From an uncultured Lachnospiraceae bacterium (GTDB lineage: Bacteria; Bacillota; Clostridia; Lachnospirales; Lachnospiraceae): 64,000 nt of DNA. Positions 1-60,494 of this stretch are shown piece by piece (positions within the stretch are counted from its first letter, which is position 1; every line of letters starts with the position of its first letter). The DNA lies in the NCBI GenBank assembly GCA_947630805.1, contig CANRIV010000008.1, positions 4,458-68,457 on the forward strand. Reading direction: 5' to 3'. Both the position numbers and the translations under genes were made by a program. Below the pieces are notes generated by a model that saw only the letters and a list, made by a program, of their open reading frames with translations, had not been told where the DNA came from and searched no databases.

Positions 1-494
1 TTCGCTGTTGTAGTTCCTTCATCCCCATCTCCGGGACTGCTGGTTTCGCCTGGATCTACTGCTTGTTTTCCACTGATTGTCAGTGGGACAGTCTCTACCT
101 GGCTGGTAAATTCCCCTGTTCCGGTAAAGGTTACCGTATACTCTCCGTTATCCAGTTCAGAAATATCTGTCAACCAGATGGACATACCGTTGTTCTGTTC
201 TTTCATATCTTTTACAACAGATCCTTCTTTCTGAATAACTACTGTGGCTTTCTGAGAAGTCTGATCCGCTGCACCAGACCATGCGAAGCCAAATCTCTGC
301 TGGTCAAAAGCTCCCTGGCTGACAAATCCAACATAATTACCTGATGGCTCGCCAACCGTATAACTTACTCCGTCTACTTCAATCGTGTAGGATGCGGCGC
401 TGACTACTGCTCCTGAGCCTGCCAGGCCTGCCACTACCATTGCGATAGCACAGATATAAGCCACGAACTTTTTCATCGTTTTGTTAAGTTTCAT
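1..494 (-). CDS. Secreted protein, 5' part only (runs off the left edge); not in the supplied ORF track
   Basis: ATG at 494-492 with SD GAAAGGAG upstream. Open frame to the window edge: MKLNKTMKKFVAYICAIAMVVAGLAGSGAVVSAASYTIEVDG..., a Sec-type signal peptide, then a beta-rich domain and a P/T/G/D-rich linker (DPGETSSPGDGDEGTTTA). Confidence 0.8.
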   Translation of the reverse strand, partial: MKLNKTMKKFVAYICAIAMVVAGLAGSGAVVSAASYTIEVDGVSYTVGEPSGNYVGFVSQGAFDQQRFGFAWSGAADQTSQKATVVIQKEGSVVKDMKEQNNGMSIWLTDISELDNGEYTVTFTGTGEFTSQVETVPLTISGKQAVDPGETSSPGDGDEGTTTA

Positions 495-589: not shown

Positions 590-691
590 CTAAGAATTTT
601 TGAAAAAAATTTCTTTTTTTGATAATTTTTCACAAATAAATACTTTTTTATAAATAAAATTAAGAATCTGATTACCTTTCCTTGACATATT

Positions 692-733
692 AAAGGGTAT
701 TTCAAAATCATCAGATTTTTTGAAATACCCTTT
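692..733 (-). terminator. Intrinsic terminator at the end of the glucan operon
   Basis: Perfect 16-bp inverted repeat AAAGGGTATTTCAAAA/TTTTGAAATACCCTTT, 21 nt after the GH17 stop. Confidence 0.75.
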
Positions 734-754
734 GATAGATTCTTTCTTTGCAGA

Positions 755-1657
755 TTATTTCAAAAGCAGCTTCGGCGTTCTGTCTACTCTGTAGATTCCC
801 CAGTTCTTTTCTGCTTCATTTGGTCGGTTTCCACCTTTCCATGGCTCATCAAATGCCTCAAACATATAGGCAATGATTTTTTCACTGTCGGTCCACGCCC
901 AGAATTCTTCATAATATTTTTTCTGGCTTTCCTCGCTAGCCTGACCTTCTTTCATCTGTGTAAAATCAGCACAGTCTGTAGCCCATCCTACTTCAGAAAA
1001 CAGAACAGGTTTTTCCGGATACATTTCTTTTATTTTATAATACCATTCTTTGTTGACCTGTAACGCTTCTTCCACAGTATTTCCATACCAGAGCGGATAG
1101 GAATGAATACTGATAATATCCATATACTGTGCAAGTTCCTGTAATTTTACCCACTCTAATGCTCCCTCATTAAACGTTACCGGTTTTCCTGTTCCTTCTT
1201 TCAGACGCACGGCAAAGCCAATCAGTCTTTGCACCGGCACATTGTTAGCGCCCCATTCCGGAGTATTTTCATTTCCAATGGAAACGGCATTAATGACATC
1301 AGGATATTTATTTGCTATGGCAATTAAATCATCAATCCTCTGATCGTTCCACGCAGCACGTGCTTTCAGTTCTTCTTCCGAATAATTTGTCTGCATCCAT
1401 GGGCAGCCCGGATTGTTTACTTCCGACTGTAATCCCGGTCCCAGCATCATTTTGATATTCAATCCCATATCCCGGATTACCTGACACGTCATTTCTGCAT
1501 AACTGATTGGATCATACATCCGGATATACCGGAATCCCAGATTGTTGATAATCTGTAAATCTTCTTTTATCTGCTCATAAGTCGGATAAGTACAGGTTTT
1601 TGGACTCTGCCCCTGTCTGTATCCGGAATAGCACACGGCTCTTCCCCATTCAAACAT
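755..1657 (-). CDS. GH17-family beta-1,3-glucanase, no signal peptide
   Basis: 300 aa; YSGYRxGQSP N-terminus, IRMYD, acid/base motif IGNE, nucleophile motif FSEVGW, C-terminal EAFDEPWK...AEKNWGI typical of bacterial GH17. Confidence 0.85.
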   Translation of the reverse strand: MFEWGRAVCYSGYRQGQSPKTCTYPTYEQIKEDLQIINNLGFRYIRMYDPISYAEMTCQVIRDMGLNIKMMLGPGLQSEVNNPGCPWMQTNYSEEELKARAAWNDQRIDDLIAIANKYPDVINAVSIGNENTPEWGANNVPVQRLIGFAVRLKEGTGKPVTFNEGALEWVKLQELAQYMDIISIHSYPLWYGNTVEEALQVNKEWYYKIKEMYPEKPVLFSEVGWATDCADFTQMKEGQASEESQKKYYEEFWAWTDSEKIIAYMFEAFDEPWKGGNRPNEAEKNWGIYRVDRTPKLLLK

Positions 1658-1737
1658 TCTTAATTACCTCGCTCTTTCTTTTCACAAAATATCGTTTTTC
1701 GAAGTCTCTTTTCCCTCTATCTGTTTTCCTCGTCTCT

Positions 1738-4434
1738 TTATCCGAGCACTGCTGTAATCTGGCTTTTATCTCCCAGTTTATCCACTTCTTCTTTTGCAAT
1801 CGTATCGCCATCGCAATATTTTTCGCCGTCAATATATATTTCTTTGACCTGATACTGACCGGCTTCCAGAGCAAATGGATTTTCATAAGTTACTGTGATA
1901 TCTACACCGCGGAAAATACAGTTAGCGCTCGCTCTGCCTCCGGAAAATTGTTCCGCTAACAACTGCGGACATAATTTCAGGGCTCCCAGTTCGCCGCGGA
2001 TTCCATACATTTCATTCAATACAGTAAGCAGTAACCAGCTTGCCGCTCCGGTAAGATAATGATACATACCTCTTCCCCTCTGATTTACATATTCCGGCAC
2101 TCCCGGATAGATGCTGCTGCGGCTATAATCATTACAATGCTGATATAATGTATGGATTACTTTGTAACCTTCTTTGGCAAACCCTCTCTGGTAAAGAGCA
2201 TTGGCATACATGACAGCCATATGAGAAAATACTGCGCCGTTTTCTTTGTGTCCAAAAGCAAATCCAAACAGTCTTCCCAAATCTGTTTTCACTTCTTTAA
2301 AATCTGTATTCAACCGGTAACCGCCGATTTTTTCATCATAGAGATATCGGTCTGCAGCTTTGACAATTTCTGCAACCTGTTCTTTTGTGGCCACTTCTGA
2401 CATCACGGCAAACACCTGCCCGGTCAGCATCATCCGCACGCCGTTCTCAAAATCACCTTCTACTGCTTTTCCACTATTATCATAATATCCGTTAAACCAG
2501 GAGTATCCTTCTTTATCTGTCGTCCATTCTGTATTGCGGATATGACATGCAATCCATTCTGACATTCCATCCAGGATACTGCACAGCCTGTCACAGCTTA
2601 CACTGACTTTTTCACCGGAAATAATATGGCGCACTGCATCGCAATACTGGTCCAGCACTGCATTTTTCTCTCCGACATTGTCATAAACAGCAGAATCGGC
2701 ATCCAGAAGAATCAGAATTTCTTTTGCCAGTTCTACAGTATCTTTCCCTGTTTTTTCTTCGTAAGCTCTGATATCCTTGGACAGGTTTTTCAGATTGCCG
2801 CCATACAATGCCGTAAATGCAACACTTTCTCCACGCTCATCTGCCATATCCAGTCCGTCGTTCCAGTCAGCGCCACGCAGCTTAATGTGATTATGTTCTC
2901 CTACATCATAAAATGCCGTCAGATGCTGTACCAGCAAATGTTCCAGAACAGTCCCCCGATATGGCTCTGCATCTGTTGTCATCTGCTTATTTCCCCTGGA
3001 ATCATTCCATCTCGTATCTCTGTCTTCTCCTCTGCAGATTTGTGCATCTTTAAAATATGTATTTTCTTCTCTTAAAAATTCAATGTCACCTGTCTGGTGT
3101 ATATATAAACTGGTTGTAAGATAAGGCCATGCTCCATGGTCCATCCAGACACGTACGATATTGTTTCTGTCTGCAATAAATTCTCCCTGCTTCGCACCGA
3201 TAATCGTAGCATTTGTCCCATCCAGTCTGACTCCGCCAAAATTATCTATCAGCATCTGACGTACTTTTTCCGGCTCCATAATCAACAACGCCAGACAATC
3301 CTGCCACAAATCTCTCCATCCTCTTCCGCCTTTTCCGTAATCGTGATGCGGAAGAAAAGAACATCCATAGATTCTCCGAAGCATCGGCTGGAAGTTTACC
3401 CAGTGCATCCAGTTATCAAAATCGGTATCTGCAGAATGATAACTTACATTCAATTTATTTTGCCAGAATTCTTTCGTCTCTTTCAAATGCCGGTCAAAAT
3501 GTTTTGTAATCAGATATTTTTTACCAAGTTCCGTAATTTCTGCTTCCGACTCTCCATATCCCAGCGCCACAATATATGTTCTTGTCTCCTGAGCTTTTAT
3601 TTCACATGTATTAAACTGAATTGCCGCTACGCTTTCGTATCCGTCTACTTCTTCTCCTGCGCTGTACGGCAACGGTTTATTTTTTATAATATAATATGGA
3701 TTTTCAAAATTGCCTCCGTCTCCGATAAATTCTTCCGTGACCGGACAGAATCTAACCGGAGATACCATCTCCTGTCCGATTTCTTCTTTCGCAAGGGCGC
3801 TATAATAAACTGTATTTTTATTGTGTCCTCTCTCATCAAAAGTGAGTGTCGGATAGATAATAATTCCATTTTTTACTGTGCGTGTTCTGTGCAGAAGAGA
3901 CGTTACATGTCTGTGATCTCTAATATTTGACGCAGAGCGGGCGTACAGTGGAATAGCTACCGTAGATGTGATTTTCTGCGGTTGGTCAGAAATATTGGTA
4001 ATCTCAATTTTTGTCAGTTCCACTTTGTCTTCCGTATCTGGCACAAAAGAAGTAATCACGGATTTTAATCCCATCTGCTGCGATATTCTCTCCACCTGAT
4101 GCCACATGATGCCGGCTGTCAGTTTTACCTGTTCCTTATCTTCATCGAAAAGTTTTGCCTGCTGTTTTGCCGATTTTCCGGTTGCGGACCACGCTCCCTT
4201 TCCGTCTACATACACCCAGAAATTACGGCTGGATTTGTTGTTGTGCAGATTTTCTGCGCTAACCGGCTCTAAAAGAAATGTATTCTGATTTAACTTGATA
4301 TCTCCTCCCAAATCCGGAGAAATGGAGCTCATCATTCCGGCTTCATTACAAAGCGGAAAATACATATATCCGGTCAGATCCGGATTGTCCAGCGTGAATG
4401 TTCCTTTTTTGTCCAAATATTTTAGTTCGCCCAT
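1738..4434 (-). CDS. GH94 phosphorylase, laminaribiose phosphorylase-like (898 aa)
   Basis: Start reassigned to ATG 4434 (SD AGGAGG). Motifs YFPLCNEAGMMS, RDHRHVTSLLHR, GGRGWRDLWQD and catalytic GADWNDGL match my recollection of the Paenibacillus laminaribiose phosphorylase rather than cellobiose phosphorylases. Confidence 0.85.
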   Translation of the reverse strand: MGELKYLDKKGTFTLDNPDLTGYMYFPLCNEAGMMSSISPDLGGDIKLNQNTFLLEPVSAENLHNNKSSRNFWVYVDGKGAWSATGKSAKQQAKLFDEDKEQVKLTAGIMWHQVERISQQMGLKSVITSFVPDTEDKVELTKIEITNISDQPQKITSTVAIPLYARSASNIRDHRHVTSLLHRTRTVKNGIIIYPTLTFDERGHNKNTVYYSALAKEEIGQEMVSPVRFCPVTEEFIGDGGNFENPYYIIKNKPLPYSAGEEVDGYESVAAIQFNTCEIKAQETRTYIVALGYGESEAEITELGKKYLITKHFDRHLKETKEFWQNKLNVSYHSADTDFDNWMHWVNFQPMLRRIYGCSFLPHHDYGKGGRGWRDLWQDCLALLIMEPEKVRQMLIDNFGGVRLDGTNATIIGAKQGEFIADRNNIVRVWMDHGAWPYLTTSLYIHQTGDIEFLREENTYFKDAQICRGEDRDTRWNDSRGNKQMTTDAEPYRGTVLEHLLVQHLTAFYDVGEHNHIKLRGADWNDGLDMADERGESVAFTALYGGNLKNLSKDIRAYEEKTGKDTVELAKEILILLDADSAVYDNVGEKNAVLDQYCDAVRHIISGEKVSVSCDRLCSILDGMSEWIACHIRNTEWTTDKEGYSWFNGYYDNSGKAVEGDFENGVRMMLTGQVFAVMSEVATKEQVAEIVKAADRYLYDEKIGGYRLNTDFKEVKTDLGRLFGFAFGHKENGAVFSHMAVMYANALYQRGFAKEGYKVIHTLYQHCNDYSRSSIYPGVPEYVNQRGRGMYHYLTGAASWLLLTVLNEMYGIRGELGALKLCPQLLAEQFSGGRASANCIFRGVDITVTYENPFALEAGQYQVKEIYIDGEKYCDGDTIAKEEVDKLGDKSQITAVLG

Positions 4435-4456
4435 GTCTTTCCTCCTAATACAAGAA

Positions 4457-4491
4457 ACAAAGGAGCAGGTCTCAAGTAACCTGCTCTTTGT
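4457..4491 (-). terminator. Intra-operon stem-loop between the GH161 and GH94 genes
   Basis: ACAAAG(G)AGCAGGT / ACCTGCTCTTTGT, 13 bp with one bulge. Confidence 0.6.
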
Positions 4492-4511
4492 CTCATTTAA
4501 CAATTATCATT

Positions 4512-7500
4512 TTACTCAAAGTAAACGGTAATCTTATCTACTTTTCCATCTCTGATGTCTTCTGCCAGACGGCCTGCAATCCGGCTGTCATTGGAAACAA
4601 CGTTTTCGTCTATCTCTATTCTGGAAACTTTCGCTCCATCTTCACCGTAAGTGTTCTTTCCTGTATTATTGACATAAGTCACGTCACAACAGGACAACAG
4701 ACGGAATGTAACTTTTCCTTCATCGAATAACCAGTTTGCAATCTTTGGCTCAAAGTTCAATACCAGGTTTCCATCTTCACAAGTAAAGACTTTACCACCC
4801 ATGAACATTTCAATCCACATAGACATCATCTCTGTCGTAGAGCCGGACAATCGTGCCACAAAACCTCTTCCATGAATGTCTTCATTTGGATTTACGCTGG
4901 ATGCCAGGAAAGAAGAGTTTTCCAATGTACTTCTTCCATACATGTTTGGATCCAAAAATGGAATCAAGGCTCTTGTGATTGTCTCATAGTACTCATCATA
5001 CAGACCTGCTTTTATCATTGCAAGGATATATTTATACTCCATGTGAAGGAAAACATTTTCTCTTTCCTGCCATCCCGGAGTAAAAGCACGGCAGCGTCCA
5101 TTTTCCATGGAACAGTCTTCAATAGAAGCAGATGTCTTATACATCGCAAGTTTCTGGTCAAAAAGACCTGTCTCCTTTACTTTCCTGTACATTGCTCTAG
5201 CCGTATCTGTATCTGTATATCCCATCATTCTTGCCGGTCCTTCCAGGAAATATGGAAGCGGAACGGTCTTAAATTCTTTTACTTTCGCTTTCTGCAGACC
5301 ATAATGGCTGATAACAGGATTTCCATCTGCATCTGTCACAGGCTCAAAATCCACCACTTCATGCGTCAGATAAGTAGGAACAAGACCATCGCCCATTGCG
5401 ACTGCTTTTTCTATTCCTTTTTCTATTTTTTCTGCAAATGCGGCAAATACATCATGAACATGTTTTCTTGTCACACTTACTTCTTTGCCGCTCAGATATA
5501 ATTTTACAGATTCTCTGTAACTTTCTCTGATTGCAGCTACTTTATCCCAGTATGCGAAATCAGAAAGTACTCCTGCATTATATTCATCCAATGCAGTTTT
5601 TACGTGATCCATATAATCTGCAATCTCTGCAGGGATTACGATATCTTCTTCTCCCACAAAATTGTCCGTAATAAATTGAATCAGACGTTTCAACTCAAAG
5701 GTTTCCGGAGTTCCTGATCCGAACAAACCCGGAAGTCCGTTCATCGCATCATTCCATCCCGGTTTTCCACCTTCCATTTCTACGCCGATACCGTCTACAT
5801 CCAACTGAGCAAACTTGCTGAGTGCCAGTGTAATCATCTTGACTGCCAATGTGGTATGATAAACCTTCTGATCCGGTGTTTGCAGCCAGTTTGTTGCCCA
5901 TTTATTGAAACCTTTTCTAGCAAGTTTTTCCTCATCTTCTACTTCCATACCGTACTGGCGTACTGCGCCTTTTTTGTTGATGACATATTTTTCATCTCTA
6001 GGCACTACGAAAGCTACACTGTCATAAAATTTGTAGGATCTGTCCTGAAACAGGAATTCTTCCAGTTTATCCGGGAATATAGAAAGATAATTGTCTACCA
6101 GATCCATATTGTAATCCCAATGGTCACTCCAATATCCTTCGCCAAATCCCGCCTCAATATTCTGCTCACAATGTTCCAGAATCTTGGCAATAAATTCGCC
6201 GTCGTCTACTTTCAGTTCAAGCTGAAGTTTGGCAATCGTATTGGAAATCTGACCCGGAGTAAATTTACCGGAAACTACTTTTTCAATGGCAGAAGCATCT
6301 CCTTGAATACATTCCTCCACATAAGATTTGACGGTATCCTCTTTTCCTTCTTTTACCTGGAAAAGACTTGGTCTTACTTCCAGTGGATTGTATCCGTCAG
6401 CCTGTACCAGACTGAAAAATGTCTTTACGTTAAATTCTCCCACGTCTTTATTAAAGAACACATCATTTCTTCTGTTCTGTGACACATCACGGAAATTTCC
6501 ATTTCCCTGAGAATAATATTCAGCGGCGATAGAAAAGAAATTGTAATCTCTTTCCGGATCACCATGCTTGCGGCTAAACAGATGAATAATGGATTTGTTT
6601 CCATCTTTGTTCAAAACATATGGATATCCGCCCCGTAAAAAGTTGTCCAAATAGCACTGTTCCACATACTGGTCAAATTTTCCCGCAGCTGTATGGGTCT
6701 TTACATCGGATGTAAAGCTTTCTGCAAGTGCTTCTGCTTCTTCAAACTTTCTGTCTGCATATCCTGTTTCACAAAATACAGGTGCCTTTGCATTAATCTG
6801 CTCTATGGAGCCTGCAAAACCTATCATTGTATCAAATCGAATCACATCGCCATCAGCTATCGTTTCTTTTATTGGTGTAAATCCACAAGGAACTTTATTT
6901 GCAAAACACTGTTTTTTTGCCATTACACCCTGAATTGAGCCGTCAATGAAATTTACCGGTGTCATTAATGACAGGTCATAGCCAAAAACGGTATCTACGT
7001 CATAAATAACATCCAAAAGTTGTCCATCTCTGACTGTAAGATAATAATATCCTCCTTCTACATCAGATACTTCTGCAGAATCTTTTGTAGAAGCTCTCAA
7101 AGTGTAATATGGAACTTTATTATCAATATTTTTAATATATGCCCAACTCTTAAACAGATTGGACATTTCCTTAAATTCCCCATTGGAAATTCCGTATGGA
7201 ATAATCTTTGGAAGTCCGTCAATCACTTCAATTTCCCGGTGCTTTCCACTCACATTTTTTATGGATACCTGTCTTACCAGTGCACCAATGCTCTCATTTG
7301 GCAGAACATAGTAATTCACAGCTATCTCAATTCCGTATTTATCGTTTTTTTCAATGACCTGAAAGCTGTTCTTATTCATTCTTATCTGTCGTTTTGCTTC
7401 TGCTTCATAGCGGAAAAATGGCTCATAGTATTCGCCATCTATTTTTAAGAATGTACGAAAGCCTTTCACGGTTGTATTTTCAAATGCGGTATTGGCAGAG

Positions 7501-7691
7501 TTGAACTCCATTATGGCATTCCCTTTATTATCAATGCCAAAGCTGTTCATTCCCTGTCCTCTGTTTGTGTAAAAAGTCCACATCGGAATCCCTTTTACAC
7601 CTGCCAATCCAGGTAAAAAACTGGAAAAGGCGGGTAATCTGTCATAATCATCTATGACAAATGTCTTTCCCTCGAGTCTGTATTTGTCCAT
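4512..7691 (-). CDS. GH161-type beta-1,3-glucan phosphorylase (1059 aa)
   Basis: Start reassigned to ATG 7691 (SD AAGGAG). N-terminal FSSFLPGLAGVKGIPMWTFYTNRGQ, catalytic GWNDAMNGLPG, C-terminal GWQERENVFLHMEYKY (GH149/GH161 signature); size and adjacency to GH94 fit GH161. Confidence 0.8.
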   Translation of the reverse strand: MDKYRLEGKTFVIDDYDRLPAFSSFLPGLAGVKGIPMWTFYTNRGQGMNSFGIDNKGNAIMEFNSANTAFENTTVKGFRTFLKIDGEYYEPFFRYEAEAKRQIRMNKNSFQVIEKNDKYGIEIAVNYYVLPNESIGALVRQVSIKNVSGKHREIEVIDGLPKIIPYGISNGEFKEMSNLFKSWAYIKNIDNKVPYYTLRASTKDSAEVSDVEGGYYYLTVRDGQLLDVIYDVDTVFGYDLSLMTPVNFIDGSIQGVMAKKQCFANKVPCGFTPIKETIADGDVIRFDTMIGFAGSIEQINAKAPVFCETGYADRKFEEAEALAESFTSDVKTHTAAGKFDQYVEQCYLDNFLRGGYPYVLNKDGNKSIIHLFSRKHGDPERDYNFFSIAAEYYSQGNGNFRDVSQNRRNDVFFNKDVGEFNVKTFFSLVQADGYNPLEVRPSLFQVKEGKEDTVKSYVEECIQGDASAIEKVVSGKFTPGQISNTIAKLQLELKVDDGEFIAKILEHCEQNIEAGFGEGYWSDHWDYNMDLVDNYLSIFPDKLEEFLFQDRSYKFYDSVAFVVPRDEKYVINKKGAVRQYGMEVEDEEKLARKGFNKWATNWLQTPDQKVYHTTLAVKMITLALSKFAQLDVDGIGVEMEGGKPGWNDAMNGLPGLFGSGTPETFELKRLIQFITDNFVGEEDIVIPAEIADYMDHVKTALDEYNAGVLSDFAYWDKVAAIRESYRESVKLYLSGKEVSVTRKHVHDVFAAFAEKIEKGIEKAVAMGDGLVPTYLTHEVVDFEPVTDADGNPVISHYGLQKAKVKEFKTVPLPYFLEGPARMMGYTDTDTARAMYRKVKETGLFDQKLAMYKTSASIEDCSMENGRCRAFTPGWQERENVFLHMEYKYILAMIKAGLYDEYYETITRALIPFLDPNMYGRSTLENSSFLASSVNPNEDIHGRGFVARLSGSTTEMMSMWIEMFMGGKVFTCEDGNLVLNFEPKIANWLFDEGKVTFRLLSCCDVTYVNNTGKNTYGEDGAKVSRIEIDENVVSNDSRIAGRLAEDIRDGKVDKITVYFE

Positions 7692-7715
7692 AATAATCTC
7701 CTTGTTTTTTGTAAC

Positions 7716-7782
7716 CAATCACGAAGTGATTGATTGCCTGCTCGCACGCCAACGCGCAGCGTTCTTTTTTGCGTGCGGGCAG
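7716..7782. repeat. Double hairpin element between the lacI-type gene and GH161
   Basis: CAATCAC-GAA-GTGATTG (7716-7732), then CTGCTCGCACGC...GCGTGCGGGCAG (7738-7782). Confidence 0.6.
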
Positions 7783-7797
7783 ATAAAATATATTTAC

Positions 7798-8799
7798 TTA
7801 GTTTTTTCGTTTTCCACAAGAACTCCTGTAGACCATCTTTGGAGAGAGTTTCGTCACGGTACCGCTCTTATTTCCCTCATCATTCAACAATCTGAAAAGT
7901 TCGTTTGCGCTGGCGCTTCCCATTTCCGTAATCGGACTATGTACTGTGGTAAGTGGTACTGCATAATATGCGCTTAGTGTGCTGTCATCATATCCGATAA
8001 CACTGATTTCTTCCGGTACCTTAATACCAACATCCTGCAGCGCCTGAATACATCCCCATGCCATCTCATCATTTGCACAGAACATTGCATCCGGAATTTC
8101 TATTCCACTGGAGAGCAGAGAACGCATCTCACTGTAAGCCAGCGTCTCCTCATAATAACCTCTCAACACAATGTTTTCATCGATTGGCAGATTATTTTTC
8201 TGCATCATCTCGACATATCCCTGATAGCGGTGCTTATCATCACCCGTATCATTTCCGTGCATATATCCGATTCTTTTGTGCCCCAGTTTAATCAGATGAT
8301 TTACTGCCATGGAAGCTCCTAACTTATCATCCACCAGCACTCCGGAAATATTTTTGCCTTTACTGTTTCTGTCAATAAATACCATTGGTATATTTACCGT
8401 AGCAATTCTTTTTACATAGTCACCAGTTAAATCTTCATGATATATAATGGCTCCCGCAACACCGGATGCAATAATCATTCTGTATATTTCATCCGGCGAA
8501 TTATCATTACTTACATAGATATTTAACAGATAGTTATTCAACTTACATTGTAAATGAATTGCCTGAGTCAATACTTTATAAAAATCGCCCTGTAAACTAG
8601 TTAAAAAGAGGCCTATTGTATTTTTTCTGTTAGACTTTAATAATTTTGCATTCATATTAGGAATGTAATGAAGTTTCTCTACTGCAGCCAGAACTCTCTG
8701 TTTTGTTTCTTCACTTACAATATCTGCATTATTAAAAACATTAGATACTGTAGAAATGGCTACGCCCGCTTCCCGGGCAACATCTTTGATTGTAACCAT
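7798..8799 (-). CDS. LacI-family transcriptional regulator
   Basis: Start ATG 8799 (SD GGGAGGT). VTIKDVAREAGVAISTVSNVFN helix-turn-helix, PN hinge, sugar-binding domain (AMFCANDEMAWG, SVIGYDD, LTTV). Confidence 0.95.
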   Translation of the reverse strand: MVTIKDVAREAGVAISTVSNVFNNADIVSEETKQRVLAAVEKLHYIPNMNAKLLKSNRKNTIGLFLTSLQGDFYKVLTQAIHLQCKLNNYLLNIYVSNDNSPDEIYRMIIASGVAGAIIYHEDLTGDYVKRIATVNIPMVFIDRNSKGKNISGVLVDDKLGASMAVNHLIKLGHKRIGYMHGNDTGDDKHRYQGYVEMMQKNNLPIDENIVLRGYYEETLAYSEMRSLLSSGIEIPDAMFCANDEMAWGCIQALQDVGIKVPEEISVIGYDDSTLSAYYAVPLTTVHSPITEMGSASANELFRLLNDEGNKSGTVTKLSPKMVYRSSCGKRKN

Positions 8800-8817
8800 A
8801 CAATTACCTCCCTTAAA

Positions 8818-8847
8818 GTCTGCCATCGGTTTTATCCGATGGCAGAC
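8818..8847 (-). terminator. Intra-operon stem-loop between GH16 and the lacI-type gene
   Basis: Perfect 12-bp stem GTCTGCCATCGG-TTTTAT-CCGATGGCAGAC. Confidence 0.65.
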
Positions 8848-8870
8848 AACTATCATTACGTATTCTGTCT

Positions 8871-10214
8871 CTATTTGTATACTCTTACGTAATCAATATA
8901 ATAATAATCTTCCCATGTCTGAACTCCGCCGGAATTGGAAACCAGATTCCAGTCTTTTGTTGAAATCTGTCCTGCTGCATTTCCTCCGATTGCACAGTTG
9001 AGAATAAAGAAGAATGGATGGTTAAATACCCAGCACTGGTTGTAGATTGTTGGGCTATACATCGTTGGATCATAAGTTCCTACTTCTCTTCCATCAACAG
9101 AGAACTTGATATATGTGTCCGTCCACTCTGCGGCATAGGAATGATATGCTGATGCACACTGTGCCTGTGTCAATCCGGTAGTATAATACTTATTTCCATG
9201 AGAATTAGAAGAATTATTGAAGTATGGACAATGGATTGTCTGTGGCACTCCACCATTCATTGCTTCCAGAATATCAATTTCTCCACATGCAGGCCATGTT
9301 CCTCCTGTGCTTCCAAGCATCCAGCCGGCTGACCATGTTCCCTGGCCCTTTGCTGATTTTGCTCTAATTTCCATTTTTCCATAGGTAAACTCTTTCTTTC
9401 CTGCAGTTTTAATTCTTGTGGAAGTATATTTTGTACCTGATGATGATATTTCCATTCTTGGAATAATTACCAGATTACCATTTTCAAACTTAATGTTTTT
9501 ACCTGCAGTGTACTCCTGAGGCTCCTGATTTCCCCATCCGGTAGCTCCGGTCTCATAAGTCCACACACTGGTATCCAGACTATTTCCATTGAATTCATCG
9601 GACCACTCCAGTTTCCATGTCTTAACGCTGAGCTGGTCGCTTGCCTTAGAATAAGATTCACTTAATAAAGTTTTCTTGCCTGATTTTGCATAAGCTTTCA
9701 CTTTAAAGTAAACATTATATCCCATTGGAAGATTGGAAACGGTAGCAGATTTCTTTTTGGCTCCCTTTACTGTTTTTACTTTTTTATATTTTCCGTTTTT
9801 CTTTGTCGCTGTGTAAATGTAATATCCGGAAGCTCCTTTTGCAGCCTTCCATGTCACTTTTGCTGAAGTCTGAGATGTCAATACGACAGAACTTACTTTG
9901 ACATTGGCAGGTACAACTTTTACCGTACACTTTGCAGAGCTTGATCCAACTTTTACTGTAATCTTACAGGTACCGGCTTTCTTTGCCTTTACCTTACCGC
10001 TACTGCTTACAGTAGCAATTTTTTTATTGCTGGTTGAAAATTTAGCACCTTTCTGTTTTACGTAAATCTTATCTGTCTTTCCGACTACGATGGTCATTTT
10101 CTTTCCGGACTGAATTTTAACTGCTGCACTCACTTTTCCAGGATTCACAGCAGACAATCCTGCAACCATCGCAATCGCAACTACGATAGCTGTAAATTTT
10201 TTTAATCCTTTCAT
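8871..10214 (-). CDS. Secreted GH16 endo-beta-1,3(4)-glucanase with N-terminal Ig-like and FN3 modules
   Basis: Signal peptide; SSNKKIATV-like Big_2 motif (FSTSNKKIATVSSSGKVKAKKAG); FN3 (VTWKAAKGASGYYIY); GH16 WSDEF, FTYGKMEIRAK, WPACGEIDILE catalytic motif, YIDYVRVY. Confidence 0.92.
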   Translation of the reverse strand: MKGLKKFTAIVVAIAMVAGLSAVNPGKVSAAVKIQSGKKMTIVVGKTDKIYVKQKGAKFSTSNKKIATVSSSGKVKAKKAGTCKITVKVGSSSAKCTVKVVPANVKVSSVVLTSQTSAKVTWKAAKGASGYYIYTATKKNGKYKKVKTVKGAKKKSATVSNLPMGYNVYFKVKAYAKSGKKTLLSESYSKASDQLSVKTWKLEWSDEFNGNSLDTSVWTYETGATGWGNQEPQEYTAGKNIKFENGNLVIIPRMEISSSGTKYTSTRIKTAGKKEFTYGKMEIRAKSAKGQGTWSAGWMLGSTGGTWPACGEIDILEAMNGGVPQTIHCPYFNNSSNSHGNKYYTTGLTQAQCASAYHSYAAEWTDTYIKFSVDGREVGTYDPTMYSPTIYNQCWVFNHPFFFILNCAIGGNAAGQISTKDWNLVSNSGGVQTWEDYYYIDYVRVYK

Positions 10215-10222
10215 GTTTCCTC

Positions 10223-11179
10223 CTATTCACCCGTAATACCGGTGTTTTCAATACCTTGTATAAACTGCTTTTGTACTAAAGCATATAAAATCAACAATGG
10301 CGCAATCGCTATCAGAGTGGCCGCCATTCTATTTGCTTCGTTGACTGCATTTCCAGTTCCGCTCGCTGCTCCATTGTCAAATAATGCCAGTTTTCCCGGA
10401 AGCAGTTCTAACGCATCACCGAGCATAATGTTTGTTGTATAAGTCTCGTTCCAGTTAAATACGAAAGAAAACAGAAATACAACAAGTATTGTTGCCATAG
10501 ATAAACGGATTGCTACATGATAAAAAACTTTTATCGAGCCCGCACCATCAATCATGGCAGCCTCATCCAGTGATTTTGGTATCATATTAAAGAAATTGTA
10601 GAATATCAAAATCAACATCGTAGAATAAGTTCCCTGTCCCAGTAACGACATTAAGAACTGTGGCACAACAGAGTTAATCAGTTTGATTCCGATAATGTTC
10701 TCAAATGTACCAAATAAAATGATTCGTGGTACGGTAAGAAGTGGTACCGGAAGAATAAATGCCACGATAAGCATCACAAACCACAAGTTGTGACCCCGGA
10801 ATGTATAACGGGATAATGCAAATCCTGTGGTGGCGGACACTGCTGTCTGTGCCACTGCCAGTAATGCTGAAAATCCAATCGAGTTAATCAGGGACGTTGG
10901 AATATTCAACGTAGATATTGCATTTTTAAAGTTCTCCAATGTAGCATGCTTTGCAATCCATGTGATGGATGGATCAATTAAGTCCTTAGAGGTCATAATT
11001 GACTTGGACACCATTTCAAAAATAGGCTCCAGGAATATAAATCCAATACATATCAACAAAAAGTATATTGCTACTTTGGAAACAATCTGAACTATTTTCA
11101 GTTTCTTTAATTTGGCAAAGTTGATTTTCTTTACAGATGACAAACCAATTTTCTTTGCACTAATATTTTTATTTGCCAT
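10223..11179 (-). CDS. Carbohydrate ABC permease (MalG-like), second pair
   Basis: Six TM segments, SLDEAAMIDGA EAA loop, FSFVFNWNE motif. Confidence 0.9.
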   Translation of the reverse strand: MANKNISAKKIGLSSVKKINFAKLKKLKIVQIVSKVAIYFLLICIGFIFLEPIFEMVSKSIMTSKDLIDPSITWIAKHATLENFKNAISTLNIPTSLINSIGFSALLAVAQTAVSATTGFALSRYTFRGHNLWFVMLIVAFILPVPLLTVPRIILFGTFENIIGIKLINSVVPQFLMSLLGQGTYSTMLILIFYNFFNMIPKSLDEAAMIDGAGSIKVFYHVAIRLSMATILVVFLFSFVFNWNETYTTNIMLGDALELLPGKLALFDNGAASGTGNAVNEANRMAATLIAIAPLLILYALVQKQFIQGIENTGITGE

Positions 11180-12281
11180 ATAACTTTGCCTCCTTTGCCT
11201 GATGTCTTCTCTGGGCAGCTAATCTCTTCTGCTGCTGCTTTTCCAGTTTCTTCAGTTTCTTTTCCTGTTTCTGTCTTGCCTTGATATCTTTTGGTTTTCT
11301 GTCTTTGAAGAGAAGGAATACAATTCCTACGATAATCAAAACGACAATACTGTAAATCCATGCGTATGTGGCGGCATAACCCAGTCCGCTTCCGGTCTCA
11401 CCGGTTTTTTCTTCAATTAACTTATAAACCGGGTTGATGGAATTGAACATACCAATCTGGATTACTGTAAATACAGTGATAATCAATCCTATCTGTTTTA
11501 ACATTGGTATTGTAATCTTCCACATAATCTGCCAAGCATTGGCGGAGTCAATTTTTGCCGCTTCATAAATGCTTGGATTAATTTTCTGTAAACCGTTGAT
11601 AAACAATACAATCGGAATACCGGTAAACCAGAGAATAATGGATAACTGGTCAAATATGTCTGCAAGCCCTGTCGCCAATGCCGGCGAATAACTATGTATA
11701 ATCTGCATGATGAAAATATTGGAGTAAGCATTCGTTTTCATCACGGCTTCCGACACCTGCTCTGCAGCCGTTTCTGCTGCATTTTCTACCGCTAATATCT
11801 GTGTCATGACAGGACCGGACATAATAACTACCGGAAGGAAATAAATTGTTCTCAGAATTCCCTTTCCTGTTTTAATCTTACATAACAGGTATGCGATGAT
11901 AAATGATAATACAACTACAATACATGTATAAGGTACAATCATTTTCAGGTATTCCAGCAGCGCCGGAAGAAATTCCGTATTCTTTACGAACGCTTCAATG
12001 TAATTGGAAATACCTGTAAAGTCAATCTCGTATCCGAGTGTTGTCTTTTTTACATTTGTAAAACTCAAATAAATTGTAAATACAAATGGGAATAAGGTAA
12101 ACAATGCAAAACCTAAAATCCAAGGAGCCATGAACATATATCCTGTTCTGTCCTGTCTCTGCTGATAGGTACGCATCTTTTTCTTCTTCACTTTTTTCTC
12201 CTTCGTCAAAGCTGTAGTAGTCTCTGACGCTGTAGTAGTTTCTGGAGTTGTTACTGCTGCTTTTTTCTTGTCTTCAGCCAT
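11169..12281 (-). CDS. Carbohydrate ABC permease (MalF-like), second pair, with extended charged termini
   Basis: YMFMAPWILGF, RTIYFLPVV, SIYEAAKIDSA (EAA Gly replaced by Ser), basic C-terminal tail. Confidence 0.88.
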   Translation of the reverse strand: MAEDKKKAAVTTPETTTASETTTALTKEKKVKKKKMRTYQQRQDRTGYMFMAPWILGFALFTLFPFVFTIYLSFTNVKKTTLGYEIDFTGISNYIEAFVKNTEFLPALLEYLKMIVPYTCIVVVLSFIIAYLLCKIKTGKGILRTIYFLPVVIMSGPVMTQILAVENAAETAAEQVSEAVMKTNAYSNIFIMQIIHSYSPALATGLADIFDQLSIILWFTGIPIVLFINGLQKINPSIYEAAKIDSANAWQIMWKITIPMLKQIGLIITVFTVIQIGMFNSINPVYKLIEEKTGETGSGLGYAATYAWIYSIVVLIIVGIVFLLFKDRKPKDIKARQKQEKKLKKLEKQQQKRLAAQRRHQAKEAKLYGK

Positions 12282-14800
12282 TATTTAACACCTCCTTCTA
12301 AAACCTGGGCACTCATTGGAGCCACCGTTGTACCGCCTACAGTTACTTCTTCTTCTGTATAATTGATGACAATACTGCGTTTTGATCCATCTTTTGAATA
12401 ATTATTGCATATAATGCCATCCTGTAATACTTTTCTTCCATCCCACTGATATCCTATTACCTGGGAAAGTGGGGTGTTTACTGTATTGTATATAGTCTGT
12501 ACCAGCTCTTCATACTGCTCAAACTCTGTAGAATAATAATCCGAAGAAGTTGTAGCAGCCAACAGGTACGATGGCTCTTTTGTCAGAACAAAGGATGGTG
12601 AAATATTATAATCTATCATTCTCAGCATATCTGTCTGGGAATAGAAAGAGAAGTTCGCATATGGCGCATATACTTCCATTGTTCCGTAAAGCACCATCTG
12701 AAGGAATGGCACAGTGTCTGTCTCATATACGTATTGGGACGTTCCAACCGGTGACTGCAGGTATCGGTCTGTATATTTCCACAAATACTGATTTGGATTT
12801 ACCAGATTTACTTTTGTGCCTGCCTTCTTTATTTTTTCTATTTCTGTCTGGTACATCTTAATTGCCTGTGAAACTGTAGAATCCACACCATCACTGCTGT
12901 AGGAACTTACTAATACATTGGATGCACCTTCTATTGTAAATGACTTACTTAAATCTCCCAGATCTTCGTACAAATCAGAAATCCACTGAGCCGTTTTCTT
13001 TGGCGTAGCATATCCATACTCTGTAACCGGTACATTTTCCGGCAATACTCCGGATTTATTTACTTCTAGATACTGTGTATTCATATGCTTTGCTGCCGTT
13101 CCATAATATCCTACCATGTCTTCATTGATTGTCGTAAATTCTCTTGAGAAAGATATATCAATATTTTTCTTCTGGAACTCAGCCATCAAATCTTCAAAAT
13201 CACTCTTCTTTCCGATATTCGCTGAGAAATGAGTGCTGTTTGGTTTGGAGAGCGTCTGTCCGCCGCTCTGCCAGCCGATAATTCCTGAATTGATATTTTT
13301 TACTCCGTCATCCACCAGCTTGTTTAATATATTTCTCACATCATCTGCTGTAGTGACAACGACTTCCTGTGTAGAGAATACACCTTTTTTGGAATCTGAC
13401 ATCAGGAAATCAATCCGGATTGGAATATTTTCACCTTTCTCCTGCATTTCTGTCAGTGTTCCATTATCAATCAGATGCTGTCTGTAAGCTTTTGCCATAC
13501 CCGCATAATCTGCAGATGGCTTTCCATCGCTTCCGTCCCCACTGAGGAACTGATAGGTCATGGATATATCATATTTATTTGGATTGTCCTGAATCTTACG
13601 ATAAGATTCTCCTGCCTGGTTAATTACCTGATAAAATGCAGAATTAAATTTAAATGCAGGATATGCGTAAGTATATCTCATTTCTCCTTCTGCCGTGGAA
13701 GCAGGTGTCGCATTAATCGACATATATTCATCGCCGCTGTCTGCGTATGCCACAAATGCCGCCTGTGTACCATCACCATGGGAGATACCGAATACCGGCA
13801 TCGTTGGGTTTTTCAGTGGTACGACATCACTCATAGAAGAATAATATACGGATTGGATGGAAGGATCCTGTCCATAAACGCTTCCGGTATAACTGCTGAA
13901 TTTGGCTATATTTTCCGTAAATCTTACCAGGGCGCCGCTTCCGTCAGGAATTAATGCGTAACCCGGTGTAACTTTCTTTCCGGTCAATTTTACCCAGTCT
14001 TCTGCTTTTTTGTCATATGCCAGAGTAGCGCCGCCACTTGTTCCTAAGAACGGCGTGATCACAATGTTGGAAATCAGCCCTGTAGCGTCTCCTGTAATTT
14101 CTTCATATGGAATATCGTATTGAATGTTTCCATCTTCTCCAAAAGTAATATGTACATTAACGCCGAGTTCTTTATCTTCAATGTTGAATAAACATTTCAA
14201 AACATATTTTCCATTGGCGCTGTCTTCTTCTTCCATTCCTGAAGTTCCATCGTCCTCATCGTATGCAGCAGATGACACTCTCGTAGTGGTCATGCTGGTA
14301 CCTTCTCCCGTAAAATATTCTATTGTGATTAAGGAATTGGCAAAAGCTGCATACTGGTCATTGGCAAAAGAGGAATCCTTTGGCTCATTGGCAAGCGCTC
14401 TTACCTGTTCCGGTGTGATACCCAGTTCTTCTGCATAATCTTTCACTGCAGACGGATCATTGTCTTCCTTCGCACCGGCTACCACGTCATAAGCTTCTTC
14501 AATCTGGCTTGGCAGTGCAATATCTACACCTGTCTTCCAGATATATCCGCTTTTCGTATTTTCAATTAAAATAATATCTCTGTCATCACGGAAATAATAT
14601 TTGTAATCTCCTCTCTCACAGAGAAGTACATACGCGTTGCTCTTTTCAAGATGGGACGTTACCCTGTCCGGTGCAGGTCTTGTATCTCTGTTTGTGTTAA
14701 GAAACGCAGCTCCCACCGCTACGCCAAGTGAAAGGACACATAAGAGAGATACCACAAGTGCTGTTATTTTTAATTTACTATGCTTAGCTGCCTGTAACAT
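12281..14800 (-). CDS. DUF5696-like membrane-anchored extracellular protein (839 aa)
   Basis: One N-terminal hydrophobic anchor, acidic body; LIPDGSGALVRF and MPVFG segments and position between permease pairs match my recollection of DUF5696 proteins. Confidence 0.7.
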   Translation of the reverse strand: MLQAAKHSKLKITALVVSLLCVLSLGVAVGAAFLNTNRDTRPAPDRVTSHLEKSNAYVLLCERGDYKYYFRDDRDIILIENTKSGYIWKTGVDIALPSQIEEAYDVVAGAKEDNDPSAVKDYAEELGITPEQVRALANEPKDSSFANDQYAAFANSLITIEYFTGEGTSMTTTRVSSAAYDEDDGTSGMEEEDSANGKYVLKCLFNIEDKELGVNVHITFGEDGNIQYDIPYEEITGDATGLISNIVITPFLGTSGGATLAYDKKAEDWVKLTGKKVTPGYALIPDGSGALVRFTENIAKFSSYTGSVYGQDPSIQSVYYSSMSDVVPLKNPTMPVFGISHGDGTQAAFVAYADSGDEYMSINATPASTAEGEMRYTYAYPAFKFNSAFYQVINQAGESYRKIQDNPNKYDISMTYQFLSGDGSDGKPSADYAGMAKAYRQHLIDNGTLTEMQEKGENIPIRIDFLMSDSKKGVFSTQEVVVTTADDVRNILNKLVDDGVKNINSGIIGWQSGGQTLSKPNSTHFSANIGKKSDFEDLMAEFQKKNIDISFSREFTTINEDMVGYYGTAAKHMNTQYLEVNKSGVLPENVPVTEYGYATPKKTAQWISDLYEDLGDLSKSFTIEGASNVLVSSYSSDGVDSTVSQAIKMYQTEIEKIKKAGTKVNLVNPNQYLWKYTDRYLQSPVGTSQYVYETDTVPFLQMVLYGTMEVYAPYANFSFYSQTDMLRMIDYNISPSFVLTKEPSYLLAATTSSDYYSTEFEQYEELVQTIYNTVNTPLSQVIGYQWDGRKVLQDGIICNNYSKDGSKRSIVINYTEEEVTVGGTTVAPMSAQVLEGGVK

Positions 14801-17732: not shown

Positions 17733-17748
17733 TTATTTCTCCTCCTTT

Positions 17749-23645: not shown

Positions 23646-23674
23646 ATTTTATCACAACACTATGTACAAATCAA
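23646..23674 (-). promoter_or_regulatory. SigA-type promoter of the glucan operon
   Basis: TTGATT-17 bp-TAAAAT with extended -10 TG. Confidence 0.7.
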
Positions 23675-23960: not shown

Positions 23961-23994
23961 TAAAAACCGCAGGAAATACGCCCTGCGGTTTTTA
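23961..23994 (-). terminator. Intrinsic terminator after the CBM-like gene
   Basis: TAAAAACCGCAGG / CCTGCGGTTTTTA, 13-bp stem. Confidence 0.8.
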
Positions 23995-33405: not shown

Positions 33406-33508
33406 AACAATCCTCCAATTCAATTTTCCCACATACTAGTTTATTGTAATACAAAGTGTCCTTAATGAAAAGCGATAAAAACATTTTTTTTGGAATTTTA
33501 TTACATTT

Positions 33509-55335: not shown

Positions 55336-55362
55336 AATATGCCTCCTTTGTATTTAACTGTT

Positions 55363-57089: not shown

Positions 57090-57108
57090 TACAACTCCTT
57101 CTTGATTG

Positions 57109-57148
57109 GAAAAGTGGTGGGCAACCATTTTTCTGCCCGCCACTTTTC
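57109..57148 (-). terminator. Stem-loop between the SBP and permease genes
   Basis: GAAAAGTGGTGGGCA / TGCCCGCCACTTTTC, 15 bp with one non-WC pair. Confidence 0.65.
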
Positions 57149-57162
57149 TGAATTTTTTAATG

Positions 57163-58506: not shown

Positions 58507-58725
58507 ACCTTTCTCCTTTTTCATACTCTTTTTAGATTTCTTTGGCTGTATAAATATTGTATTCCAAAAAATGAAAATTATTTATTCCAAAAGAAATTTC
58601 AACATTTTATTTTCTATAGAAAATTACAAAATAATTTTTAATAAAAAAAGAAGCCGGTGTTTTGCCACCAGCCCCTTTTTGAGATTAAGTAAAATATATA
58701 TTTAAGAACAGAGTTCTAAATATTT

Positions 58726-60396: not shown

Positions 60397-60437
60397 AATT
60401 ATCTCCTCCATTCTTTCTGTCCTGTTCTTATCAAAAC

Positions 60438-60476: not shown

Positions 60477-60494
60477 TTTCGTTCAACAGAGATT

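Follow-up and report, generated by a model that had tools for sequence, protein, structure and literature searches.

A predicted beta-1,3-glucan utilization locus combining two phosphorylases, a cytoplasmic GH17 protein and a widespread uptake cassette in a gut Lachnospiraceae bacterium

Results

A probable locus for utilization of beta-1,3-glucan

We analyzed a 64,000-nucleotide window of the genome of an uncultured Lachnospiraceae bacterium (assembly of 1.84 Mb in 26 contigs, 98.8% complete), with emphasis on five intact open reading frames (ORFs) located on the minus strand at positions 755-10214. In the order of transcription, these encode a GH16 endo-glucanase, a LacI-family regulator, a GH161 phosphorylase, a GH94 phosphorylase and a GH17 protein. 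Based on the domain content and the order of the genes, we conclude that the region very probably represents the enzyme part of an approximately 23-kb utilization locus in a gut Lachnospiraceae, for which beta-1,3-glucan is the most likely substrate. The locus is a new and uncharacterized example of a published locus type, and the pathway concept itself is not new. The less ordinary features are the cytoplasmic GH17 partner, including its natural fusion to GH161, and the link to an undescribed and widespread uptake cassette.

A first-pass annotation, made from the letters of the sequence, had assigned the four enzymes to families GH16, GH161, GH94 and GH17. These assignments were borne out by Pfam, by full-length matches to solved enzymes and by an AlphaFold model. 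The catalytic motifs reported for all four enzymes are present and could each be located (EIDILE, ADWNDG, GWNDA, GNE and SEVGW). Signal, anchor or lipobox sequences were observed in the GH16 protein and in the proteins of the uptake cassette only, and none was observed in GH161, GH94, GH17 or LacI. This pattern supports the earlier proposal of cytoplasmic phosphorylases combined with a secreted endo-glucanase.

Two predicted cytoplasmic phosphorylases

The ORF at 4512-7691 (minus strand) encodes a predicted cytoplasmic beta-1,3-oligoglucan phosphorylase of 1059 amino acids (aa) without a signal peptide. It belongs to GH161, a family defined by Kuhaudomlarp et al. 2019 (J Biol Chem, PMC6484121). 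The protein matched the solved GH161 enzyme 9qqk ("GH161A") over the full length with a score of 813.8 bits (ORF residues 17-1065 on chain residues 5-1035), and a second solved GH161 enzyme, 9h8v, was also matched over the full length. The scores were 53.8 bits to the GH149 structure 6hq6, 115.9 bits to the NCBIfam GH149 model, which has a cut-off of 1150, and 18 bits to the Pfam GH94 model. The weak match to GH149 in combination with the strong matches to 9qqk and 9h8v is in keeping with membership of the sister family GH161. The catalytic loop GWND (D648) lies within the motif GWNDA at residues 645-649 (window 5745-5759), and the Arg-Asp sugar-phosphate motif of clan GH-Q is found in the stretch NFRDV, aligned to nfRDv of 9qqk. 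Chain A of 9qqk has W-Y-D at the position where the protein studied here (residues 645-648) and THA_1941 have W-N-D, suggesting that the Asn of the "WND" motif is not universal in GH161 and that only the Asp is.

The length of 1059 aa given in the first-pass annotation is right with ATG 7691, not TTG 7718, as the start codon. For GH161, GH94 and LacI, the ATG codons at 7691, 4434 and 8799 were preferred to the listed TTG starts because of the alignments to solved homologues and the ribosome-binding sites. It had also been stated that GH161 enzymes act on chains with a degree of polymerization of three or more. This is the case for PapP, a GH161 enzyme that degrades laminari-oligosaccharides only to the dimer (PMC6484121), but THA_1941, also a GH161, cleaves laminaribiose phosphorolytically as well (bioRxiv 10.1101/2025.04.05.647330).

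The ORF at 1738-4434 (minus strand) encodes a predicted cytoplasmic laminaribiose phosphorylase of family GH94, with a length of 898 aa from the likely start ATG 4434 and with the motif ADWNDG at residues 522-527 (window 2854-2871). The Pfam matches PF17167 and PF06165 correspond to the catalytic and supersandwich domains. Alignment to PsLBP, the laminaribiose phosphorylase of Paenibacillus (6ggy), gave 1059.7 bits over residues 9-880, 52% identity over 867 positions and four short gaps only. The best scores for other GH94 specificities were 84.6 bits (cyclic glucan synthase) and 71.9 bits (cellobiose phosphorylase). The candidate functions of cellobiose or sophorose phosphorylase were rejected on this gap in scores (1059.7 versus at most 84.6 bits). 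The stretches RGWRDLWQD, FGHKENG..FSHM and ADWNDG are identical or near-identical to those of PsLBP, and cover the WND, RD and phosphate-site features of laminaribiose phosphorylase defined in PMC6771811. A beta-hairpin "gate" confines laminaribiose phosphorylase to disaccharides (PMC6771811).

Predicted secreted GH16 and cytoplasmic GH17 proteins

The first gene of the five, at 8871-10214 (minus strand), encodes a predicted secreted endo-beta-1,3-glucanase of the laminarinase type, consisting of a signal peptide, a Big_2 domain, a Lys-rich fn3 domain and a GH16 catalytic domain. The Pfam matches were PF00722 (74.5 bits), PF02368 and PF00041, and the sequence EIDILE, representing the catalytic motif ExDxxE, is located at residues 312-317 (window 9264-9281). 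The best of the solved relatives were the laminarinases 5wut (E 2.4e-46), 4dfs, 3azx and 3iln, and the top 20 solved matches were all laminarinases or beta-1,3(4)-glucanases.

The last gene, at 755-1657 (minus strand), encodes a divergent GH17 protein of 300 aa without a signal peptide. This is the weakest family assignment of the four, with a score of 28.8 bits to Pfam PF00332 at a cut-off of 28.2, covering residues 219-297 only. The sequence matched 6fcg with an E-value of 4e-22 in two stretches and 4wtp with an E-value of 3.5e-9, and relatives of the protein are named "glycosyl hydrolase family 17 protein" by NCBI. The AlphaFold model, built on 40 sequences, has a pLDDT of 95.8, and the two best PDB matches to the model in Foldseek were both GH17 enzymes, 6fcg (TM 0.81) and 4wtp (TM 0.74). 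The model is a (beta/alpha)8 barrel, as expected of clan GH-A, in which the acid/base Glu follows strand 4 and the nucleophile Glu follows strand 7. The candidate acid/base E130 is part of GNE (residues 128-130, window 1268-1276) and ends the strand 122-129, and the candidate nucleophile E222 is part of SEVGW (residues 221-225, window 983-997) and lies in the strand 218-223. These positions are at the ends of strands 4 and 7, and both residues are invariant in the 40 sequences.

All of the 23 locus-linked GH17 homologues begin with MFEWGRA[IV]CYSGYR, like the protein in the window, and none has a signal peptide, which suggests that the GH17 protein is cytoplasmic. The relatives listed among 120 matches were all at least 74% identical, and the diversity of the family was taken from a search of representative proteins. 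In one lineage (loci L070, L075, L076 and L079), the GH17 gene is located directly 3' of the GH161 gene. The search of 1.84 billion representative proteins also revealed a GH161::GH17 fusion protein of 1367 aa. Residues 1-1063 of the fusion are 56% identical to the GH161 protein and residues 1068-1360 are 47% identical to the GH17 protein studied here, separated by a linker of four residues. The fusion ORF is located at L081:8001-12104 in a metagenome assembly, where its neighbours are, in order, a permease, NHL/Yip1, DUF5696, two permeases, GH16, the fusion, GH94 and a GH16 protein of 247 aa. We rejected a gene-calling artefact, since the contig translates through without a stop codon in a syntenic locus. 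A sequencing error is conceivable, as the contig is recorded in only two samples. The existence of the fusion speaks for a shared pool of imported chains as the substrate of GH17 and GH161.

Upstream uptake cassette

Eight genes upstream of GH16, on the same strand, encode two permease pairs, a DUF5696 protein, an NHL/TPR/Yip1 protein, a large binding protein and a lipoprotein. The pair of CUT1-type ABC permeases directly 5' of GH16 (10223-12281, consisting of 10223-11179 and 11169-12281) matches BPD_transp_1 in Pfam and UgpE, MalG and GlcT-like models in NCBIfam, and is syntenic in 37 of 61 GH161 loci. Next to it, at 12281-14800, is a membrane-anchored DUF5696 protein (PF18952, 477 bits). The AlphaFold model of this protein (pTM 0.83) displays a membrane anchor followed by a TIM barrel with a beta-sandwich on either side, and the best Foldseek matches were GH129, GH101, GH31 and GH97 structures at approximately 10% identity, indicative of a glycosidase-like fold. 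An in-frame stop in the DUF5696 gene was observed in one Lachnospiraceae metagenome-derived genome (L069:2858-5278), representing either a pseudogene or an assembly error. We found no paper on DUF5696, and none on GH161A, in a literature search.

The ORF at 14784-16850 encodes a Yip1 membrane-domain protein that also has a signal peptide, an NHL propeller and TPR repeats (Pfam NHL, TPR_11 and Yip1). It is preceded by the other CUT1-type permease pair (16863-18693, consisting of 16863-17732 and 17749-18693), which was recognized by BPD_transp_1 and synteny. The large membrane-anchored solute-binding protein at 18686-21814, 1042 aa in length from the likely ATG 21814, contains about 600 aa of extra domains before SBP_bac_1 (residues 627-923), and its gene keeps the first place in the cassette in distant genomes. 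The first gene of the unit, at 21896-23572, encodes a lipoprotein of 558 aa with the lipobox LLTGC and no Pfam match. It is presumed to be a second solute-binding protein, and its homologue adjoins the large binding protein in L048. All of these genes are on the minus strand.

DUF5696 was identified in 50 of 150 evenly sampled Clostridia genomes, with up to six copies per genome. The order of genes was fixed in all 16 distant Clostridia cassettes, at identities of 21-44%: the large solute-binding protein, two permeases, NHL/Yip1, DUF5696 and two permeases. None of the 16 distant copies was located beside GH161 or GH94, and their neighbours were GH9, GH106, GH43 with CBM6, GH31 and GH3. The fixed order and the varying enzyme neighbours suggest that the cassette is a generic uptake module, here joined to enzymes for beta-1,3-glucan.

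Conservation in related genomes

Synteny was analyzed by tblastn of 14 proteins from the window against 80 GH161 loci, and counts refer to the loci with enough flanking sequence. The closest GH161 genes, with 78-85% identity, were found in metagenome-derived genomes labelled "Eubacterium sp.", in E. segne BX4, E. album LFL-14 and Eubacterium sp. AF36-5BH, and also in metagenome-derived Lachnospiraceae of rumen, rabbit, mouse and human. The gene order in the Eubacterium clade is permeases, NHL/Yip1, DUF5696, permeases, GH16, (LacI), GH161, GH94 and (GH17), with the genes in parentheses present in part of the loci. The same order was observed at 45-60% identity in genomes labelled Herbinix, Acetatifactor and Roseburia, giving an overall range of 45-90%. 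A GH94 gene comes after GH161 in 39 of 55 loci and a GH17 gene occurs in 19 of 55, while the upstream cassette, GH16 and LacI were found in 37, 41 and 40 of 61 loci, respectively.

Between GH161 and GH94, insertions of 1.5-3.5 kb with unrelated small ORFs were observed in six loci (L010, L012, L015, L020, L026 and L043), and the junction appears to be a hot spot for insertions. The inserted ORFs were rejected as missing enzymes of the pathway, as they encode DUF6709, PDDEXK transposase-like or unknown small proteins.

Transcription unit and regulation

The first-pass annotation had placed the four enzymes at 755-10214 in one operon. The genes are on one strand, but the unit was drawn too narrowly. 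The only good promoter and terminator pair in the surroundings brackets the region from 23674 to about 690, suggesting that the transcription unit is probably about 23 kb long with 14 genes, of which the five-gene region makes up the distal third. All 14 genes are on one strand with intergenic gaps of 0-80 nucleotides (nt), and the permease stop is separated from the GH16 start by 8 nt. These statements about operon structure are based on sequence and synteny only.

The candidate main promoter is located at 23646-23674 (minus strand) and consists of TTGATT, a 17-nt spacer and TAAAAT, with the block TGTACATA directly after the -35 element. A clean terminator of the gene preceding the unit is found at 23961-23994. 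At the other end, right after the GH17 stop, a terminator-like stem of 20 bp is located at 688-737 (minus strand), representing an inverted repeat that is 95% complementary with a folding energy of -20.2 kcal/mol (z -4.6). The gene downstream of GH17 has its own promoter.

Three of the internal gaps contain hairpins on the minus strand. The gap between GH16 and LacI contains a perfect 12-bp hairpin at 8818-8847 (-23.7 kcal/mol, z -5.1), followed by UUU and the ribosome-binding site of LacI. A double hairpin is located between LacI and GH161 at 7713-7782 (-31.8 kcal/mol, z -4.05), and another hairpin is found between GH161 and GH94 at 4449-4499 (-23.9 kcal/mol, z -4.1), without a proper U-tract. 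A comparison of 23 loci indicated that the double hairpin is absent from most close relatives, and in five of these the LacI stop abuts the ribosome-binding site of GH161. Thus, the hairpin at 7713-7782 is a lineage-specific insert, and co-transcription of LacI and GH161 would be ancestral.

The embedded regulator at 7798-8799 (minus strand) is a LacI-family repressor (Pfam LacI and Peripla_BP_3; LacI-family models in NCBIfam), for which ATG 8799, giving 333 aa, was favoured over the listed TTG start. It is 84-95% identical among the Eubacterium-clade loci. The 17-nt palindrome CAATCAC-TTC-GTGATTG located 5' of GH161 was rejected as an operator, because it sits in the lineage-specific insert and is absent from most relatives. 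The TGTACATA block is common to the minus-strand promoters at 23661-23674 and 576-589, in each case after TTGWWT, with three matches as compared to 0.24 expected by chance. It may be a shared operator, perhaps for the LacI repressor. The exact TGTACATA was absent from all comparison loci searched, and the only near copy, TTGAATTGCACATA, was found in L025 before the homologous downstream gene.

Accessory genes

A phosphoglucomutase for conversion of glucose 1-phosphate (Glc-1-P) to glucose 6-phosphate is encoded 8 kb upstream, outside the operon, at 31672-33432 (minus strand; Pfam PGM_PMM domains I, II and III). A ROK kinase gene is located further along the same contig, and the single MalK-type ATPase gene of the genome is on contig 7. 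In sister loci, GH161 and GH94 are followed by genes for GH30 (about 440 aa), a 250-aa GH16, GH5 and GH3. The only GH30 of the genome studied here is a protein of 457 aa without a signal peptide, encoded on contig 12 at 2848-4221 (L131, minus strand), where it stands alone between the genes for pyruvate phosphate dikinase and a nucleotidase. It is 38% identical to the GH30 inside other Lachnospiraceae GH161 loci and is a candidate for a relocated beta-1,6 debranching enzyme. The genome contains one GH3 gene (contig 3), and no GH1 gene was found in it.

Proposed pathway

From family membership and gene layout, as observed, we infer the following activities and their order of action. The secreted GH16 laminarinase would cut laminarin, curdlan, callose or yeast glucan outside of the cell, yielding laminari-oligosaccharides. 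These would be captured by the two binding proteins and imported via the twin CUT1 permease pairs of the NHL-Yip1/DUF5696 cassette, energized by the single MalK/MsmK-type ATPase of the genome, which is encoded away from the locus. In the cytoplasm, GH161 is expected to take alpha-Glc-1-P off the non-reducing ends until laminaribiose remains. The GH17 protein, most likely an endo-beta-1,3-glucanase, would provide new non-reducing ends and passage past beta-1,6 branch points that stall the phosphorylase. Laminaribiose would then be converted to Glc-1-P and glucose by the GH94 laminaribiose phosphorylase, and the phosphoglucomutase and the ROK kinase would supply glycolysis, with one ATP saved for each glycosidic bond split by phosphate. 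The LacI repressor probably holds the unit off until an imported oligosaccharide is present. For the branched remnants, the unlinked cytoplasmic GH30, GH3 or both are probably needed.

For linear beta-1,3 chains, the gene set is predicted to be sufficient, with GH16 outside and GH161, GH17 and GH94 inside of the cell, and the expected products of a linear chain are n-1 Glc-1-P and one glucose. The description of the pathway as complete thus holds for unbranched chains. It does not extend to branched glucans, since the locus contains no beta-1,6-active enzyme, and the ATPase, the phosphoglucomutase and the glucokinase are encoded outside the operon. With no debranching enzyme in the locus, the bacterium would have to rely on unlinked genes to use laminarin or yeast glucan. 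The core of the earlier proposal, phosphorolysis by GH161 and then by GH94, is right, although it is not new, having been published in 2019 (PMC6484121). The further statement that almost all depolymerization is phosphorolytic and intracellular was too broad, leaving out the extracellular cut by GH16 and a hydrolytic or transglycosylating step by GH17.

Alternative explanations

Several points weigh against the pathway as described. GH16 enzymes of the laminarinase type often cleave mixed-linkage glucan too. At 52% identity to PsLBP, the disaccharide specificity of the GH94 enzyme for laminaribiose is likely rather than certain. The GH17 protein could be a transglycosylase, with the transferase RmBgt17A (4wtp) as the second-best structural match. 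No predicted beta-1,6-cutting enzyme was found within the locus, unlike in sister loci. The stable hairpins in three internal gaps could terminate or process the transcript, making a single operon probable rather than certain, and no LacI operator was identified among palindromes sought in the promoter region and the internal gaps.

The physiological substrate could be cereal mixed-linkage beta-1,3/1,4-glucan (MLG) or lichenan, with GH16 acting as a beta-1,3(4)-glucanase as in the MLG locus of Blautia producta. In favour of this, cereal glucan is plentiful in the rumen and in the rabbit, mouse and human gut, from which the relatives were sampled, and BpGH16 of B. producta cleaves both laminarin and MLG in a locus that pairs GH16 with GH94 and an ABC importer (PMC10318527). 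We consider this substrate unlikely, since the GH94 protein is orthologous to laminaribiose phosphorylase (1059.7 bits, as compared to at most 72 bits to cellodextrin and cellobiose phosphorylases) and the GH161 enzymes characterized so far are beta-1,3-specific (PMC6484121; bioRxiv 2025.04.05.647330). Furthermore, there is no beta-1,4-active enzyme at the locus and no GH1 in the genome, and the GH30 of sister loci suits beta-1,6-branched beta-1,3-glucans. Far less probable still is that the phosphorylases run mainly in the direction of synthesis, for example of an intracellular or capsular beta-1,3-glucan from Glc-1-P. Both reactions are reversible in vitro (PMC6484121; bioRxiv 2025.04.05.647330), but in many genera the genes occur together with those for a secreted endo-glucanase, two importers and a sugar-responsive LacI repressor, and the locus contains neither a glycosyltransferase nor an exporter. 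As for the GH17 protein, hydrolases and transferases of this family are not separable by sequence alone. We consider an endo-glucanase giving new chain ends and passage past branch points most likely, because the nearest relative is an endo-laminarinase (6fcg). It is less likely that the protein is instead a beta-1,3-glucanosyltransferase, lengthening chains for GH161 through disproportionation of short laminari-oligosaccharides, as the beta-glucan counterpart of MalQ with MalP in maltodextrin metabolism. RmBgt17A ranks second by both sequence and structure, GH17 contains well-known transferases, and a cytoplasmic location with fusion to the phosphorylase in one lineage is as expected of a chain-supplying partner; the window also has a GH77/MalQ-type gene in a maltodextrin cluster, so the organism already uses such logic. 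However, the Formosa endo-laminarinase 6fcg is closer than 4wtp on both measures (E 4e-22 versus 3.5e-9; TM 0.81 versus 0.74), and with a laminaribiose phosphorylase present, completion of the dimer needs no disproportionation. In either role, whether as a branch-bypassing endo-glucanase or as a MalQ-like beta-1,3-glucanotransferase, the GH17 protein might be a dedicated cytoplasmic partner of GH161, a role undescribed for bacterial GH17, and together with the generic cassette it might define a Gram-positive machine for import of long chains followed by phosphorolysis. We put this forward tentatively. No paper linking GH17 to GH161 in a Gram-positive locus was found in a literature search.

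It is conceivable, though not probable, that the enzymes do not form one operon with the importer, and that termination or processing at the hairpins 8818-8847, 7713-7782 and 4449-4499 combined with internal promoters gives two to four transcripts of differing abundance. The four hairpins, with energies of -20 to -32 kcal/mol and z-scores of -4 to -5, are positioned exactly in intergenic gaps, promoter-like hexamers occur within the region (for example at 8375-8347 and 10609-10581), and unrelated ORFs have been inserted between GH161 and GH94 in relatives with the locus kept. However, a proper U-tract is missing after each internal hairpin, and the promoter-like sites are not enriched, with 69 sites as compared to 61.6 expected in shuffled sequence. 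The gap of 8 nt between permease and GH16, and the contiguity of LacI and GH161 in relatives, also argue for the single unit from 23674 to about 690.

Other genes in the window

Next to the operon on its downstream side lies a gene (window 3-494, extending into contig 8; L084:1565-4951, minus strand) for a secreted protein of 1128 aa that carries two F5/8-type-C (CBM32-like) domains and ends in a Lys-rich fn3-like tail. Lys-rich tails of a similar kind terminate two small ORFs in the neighbourhood (L084:700-1356 and 97-642), and GH16 also has a Lys-rich fn3 domain in its N-terminal part. Homologues of the 1128-aa protein come after GH17 in L025 and L042, and the protein may bind glycans at the cell surface as a member of the same regulon. 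Directly 5' of the operon is an ORF of 265 aa (24028-24825, minus strand) with its own terminator and no Pfam match, which had been labelled CBM4-like in the first-pass annotation.

Further along the window, also on the minus strand, an ORF of 764 aa (40411-42705) combines a complete isopropylmalate synthase (HMGL-like, IPMS_D2 and LeuA_dimer) with a C-terminal helix-turn-helix domain of the AraC type. A GH2 enzyme of 617 aa is encoded at 42912-44765, in which the TIM-barrel domain extends up to the last residue of the ORF. A cluster of the maltodextrin type at 53809-58524, with a GH77 4-alpha-glucanotransferase, two ABC permeases and a binding protein, represents an alpha-glucan counterpart of the locus studied here. 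A single ORF of 586 aa at 58726-60486 encodes both an ammonium transporter and a P-II regulatory domain.

Discussion

Phosphorolytic use of beta-1,3-glucan saves ATP in strictly fermentative gut bacteria, and loci of the kind described here may account for differences among Lachnospiraceae in their response to dietary or feed laminarin, yeast glucan or curdlan. The locus makes up about 1.2% of the 1.84-Mb genome, which together with its conservation over lineages from rumen, rabbit, mouse and human gut suggests that it is probably the route to a main carbon source. The GH161, laminaribiose phosphorylase and GH17 proteins are candidate enzymes of gut Lachnospiraceae that would be useful for making beta-1,3-oligosaccharides from Glc-1-P, and the natural GH161::GH17 fusion hints at an enzyme cooperation not yet studied. 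The locus also gives the DUF5696/NHL-Yip1 cassette a defined substrate for study, of which the beta-1,3-glucan version would be the easiest to test.

Comparison with known systems

Kuhaudomlarp et al. 2019 described loci of Gram-positive bacteria in which GH94 and GH161 genes stand in tandem, with ABC transporters but no ATPase gene, and proposed sequential phosphorolysis (PMC6484121, Fig. 8). As in these loci, the two enzymes in the window are adjacent, encoded on one strand, cytoplasmic and located beside ABC permeases without an ATPase gene. Unlike in the tandem loci, the GH94 protein is a clear orthologue of a characterized laminaribiose phosphorylase, LacI is placed between GH16 and GH161, and a cytoplasmic GH17 is added. 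The importer differs too, being an eight-gene cassette with twin permeases, NHL-Yip1 and DUF5696 as compared to a simple three-gene ABC system. The clusters of Acholeplasma laidlawii PG-8A (PMC6484121, Fig. 7) likewise bring together a GH16 laminarinase, GH161, a GH94 laminaribiose phosphorylase and ABC permeases, but are organized as two adjacent clusters with a GH3 beta-glucosidase and no GH17, whereas the window contains a single unit and no beta-glucosidase.

The laminarin locus of Bacillus weihaiensis Alg07 (GH30, GH1, GH16 and GH161), which is laminarin-induced according to the citation in PMC6484121, resembles the locus described here in combining a secreted endo-enzyme with a cytoplasmic GH161. 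As cited there, the dimer is hydrolysed by GH1 and GH30 is part of the locus, whereas in the window the dimer step would be phosphorolytic (GH94) and the only GH30 is unlinked. The MLG locus of Blautia producta ATCC 27340 (PMC10318527) is also from a gut Lachnospiraceae and shares a surface GH16, an ABC importer, a regulator and a cytoplasmic GH94. BpGH94 is, however, of the cellodextrin type and inactive on laminaribiose, and that locus lacks GH161 and targets beta-1,3/1,4-glucan (PMC10318527). Beyond this example, we found no other characterized beta-glucan locus of gut Lachnospiraceae in the literature.

FbGH17A of Formosa (6fcg; its laminarin locus, which also has a GH30 enzyme, is among those cited in PMC6484121) is the nearest solved relative of the GH17 protein and shares the GH17 fold and the two catalytic glutamates. 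The identity between the two is about 21%, and the chain of 6fcg has 393 residues as compared to the 300 aa of the protein in the window. GH17 enzymes from laminarin loci of Bacteroidetes, of the Formosa kind, are normally exported, whereas the GH17 protein described here and its 22 locus-linked homologues have no signal peptide. In the MalP/MalQ system of E. coli, oligosaccharides taken up by an ABC importer are consumed from the non-reducing end by a cytoplasmic phosphorylase with the help of a second cytoplasmic enzyme that works on these chains too. The resemblance to the proposed cooperation of GH161 and GH17 is a functional analogy only, with alpha-1,4 chemistry in one system and beta-1,3 chemistry in the other, carried out by unrelated protein families.

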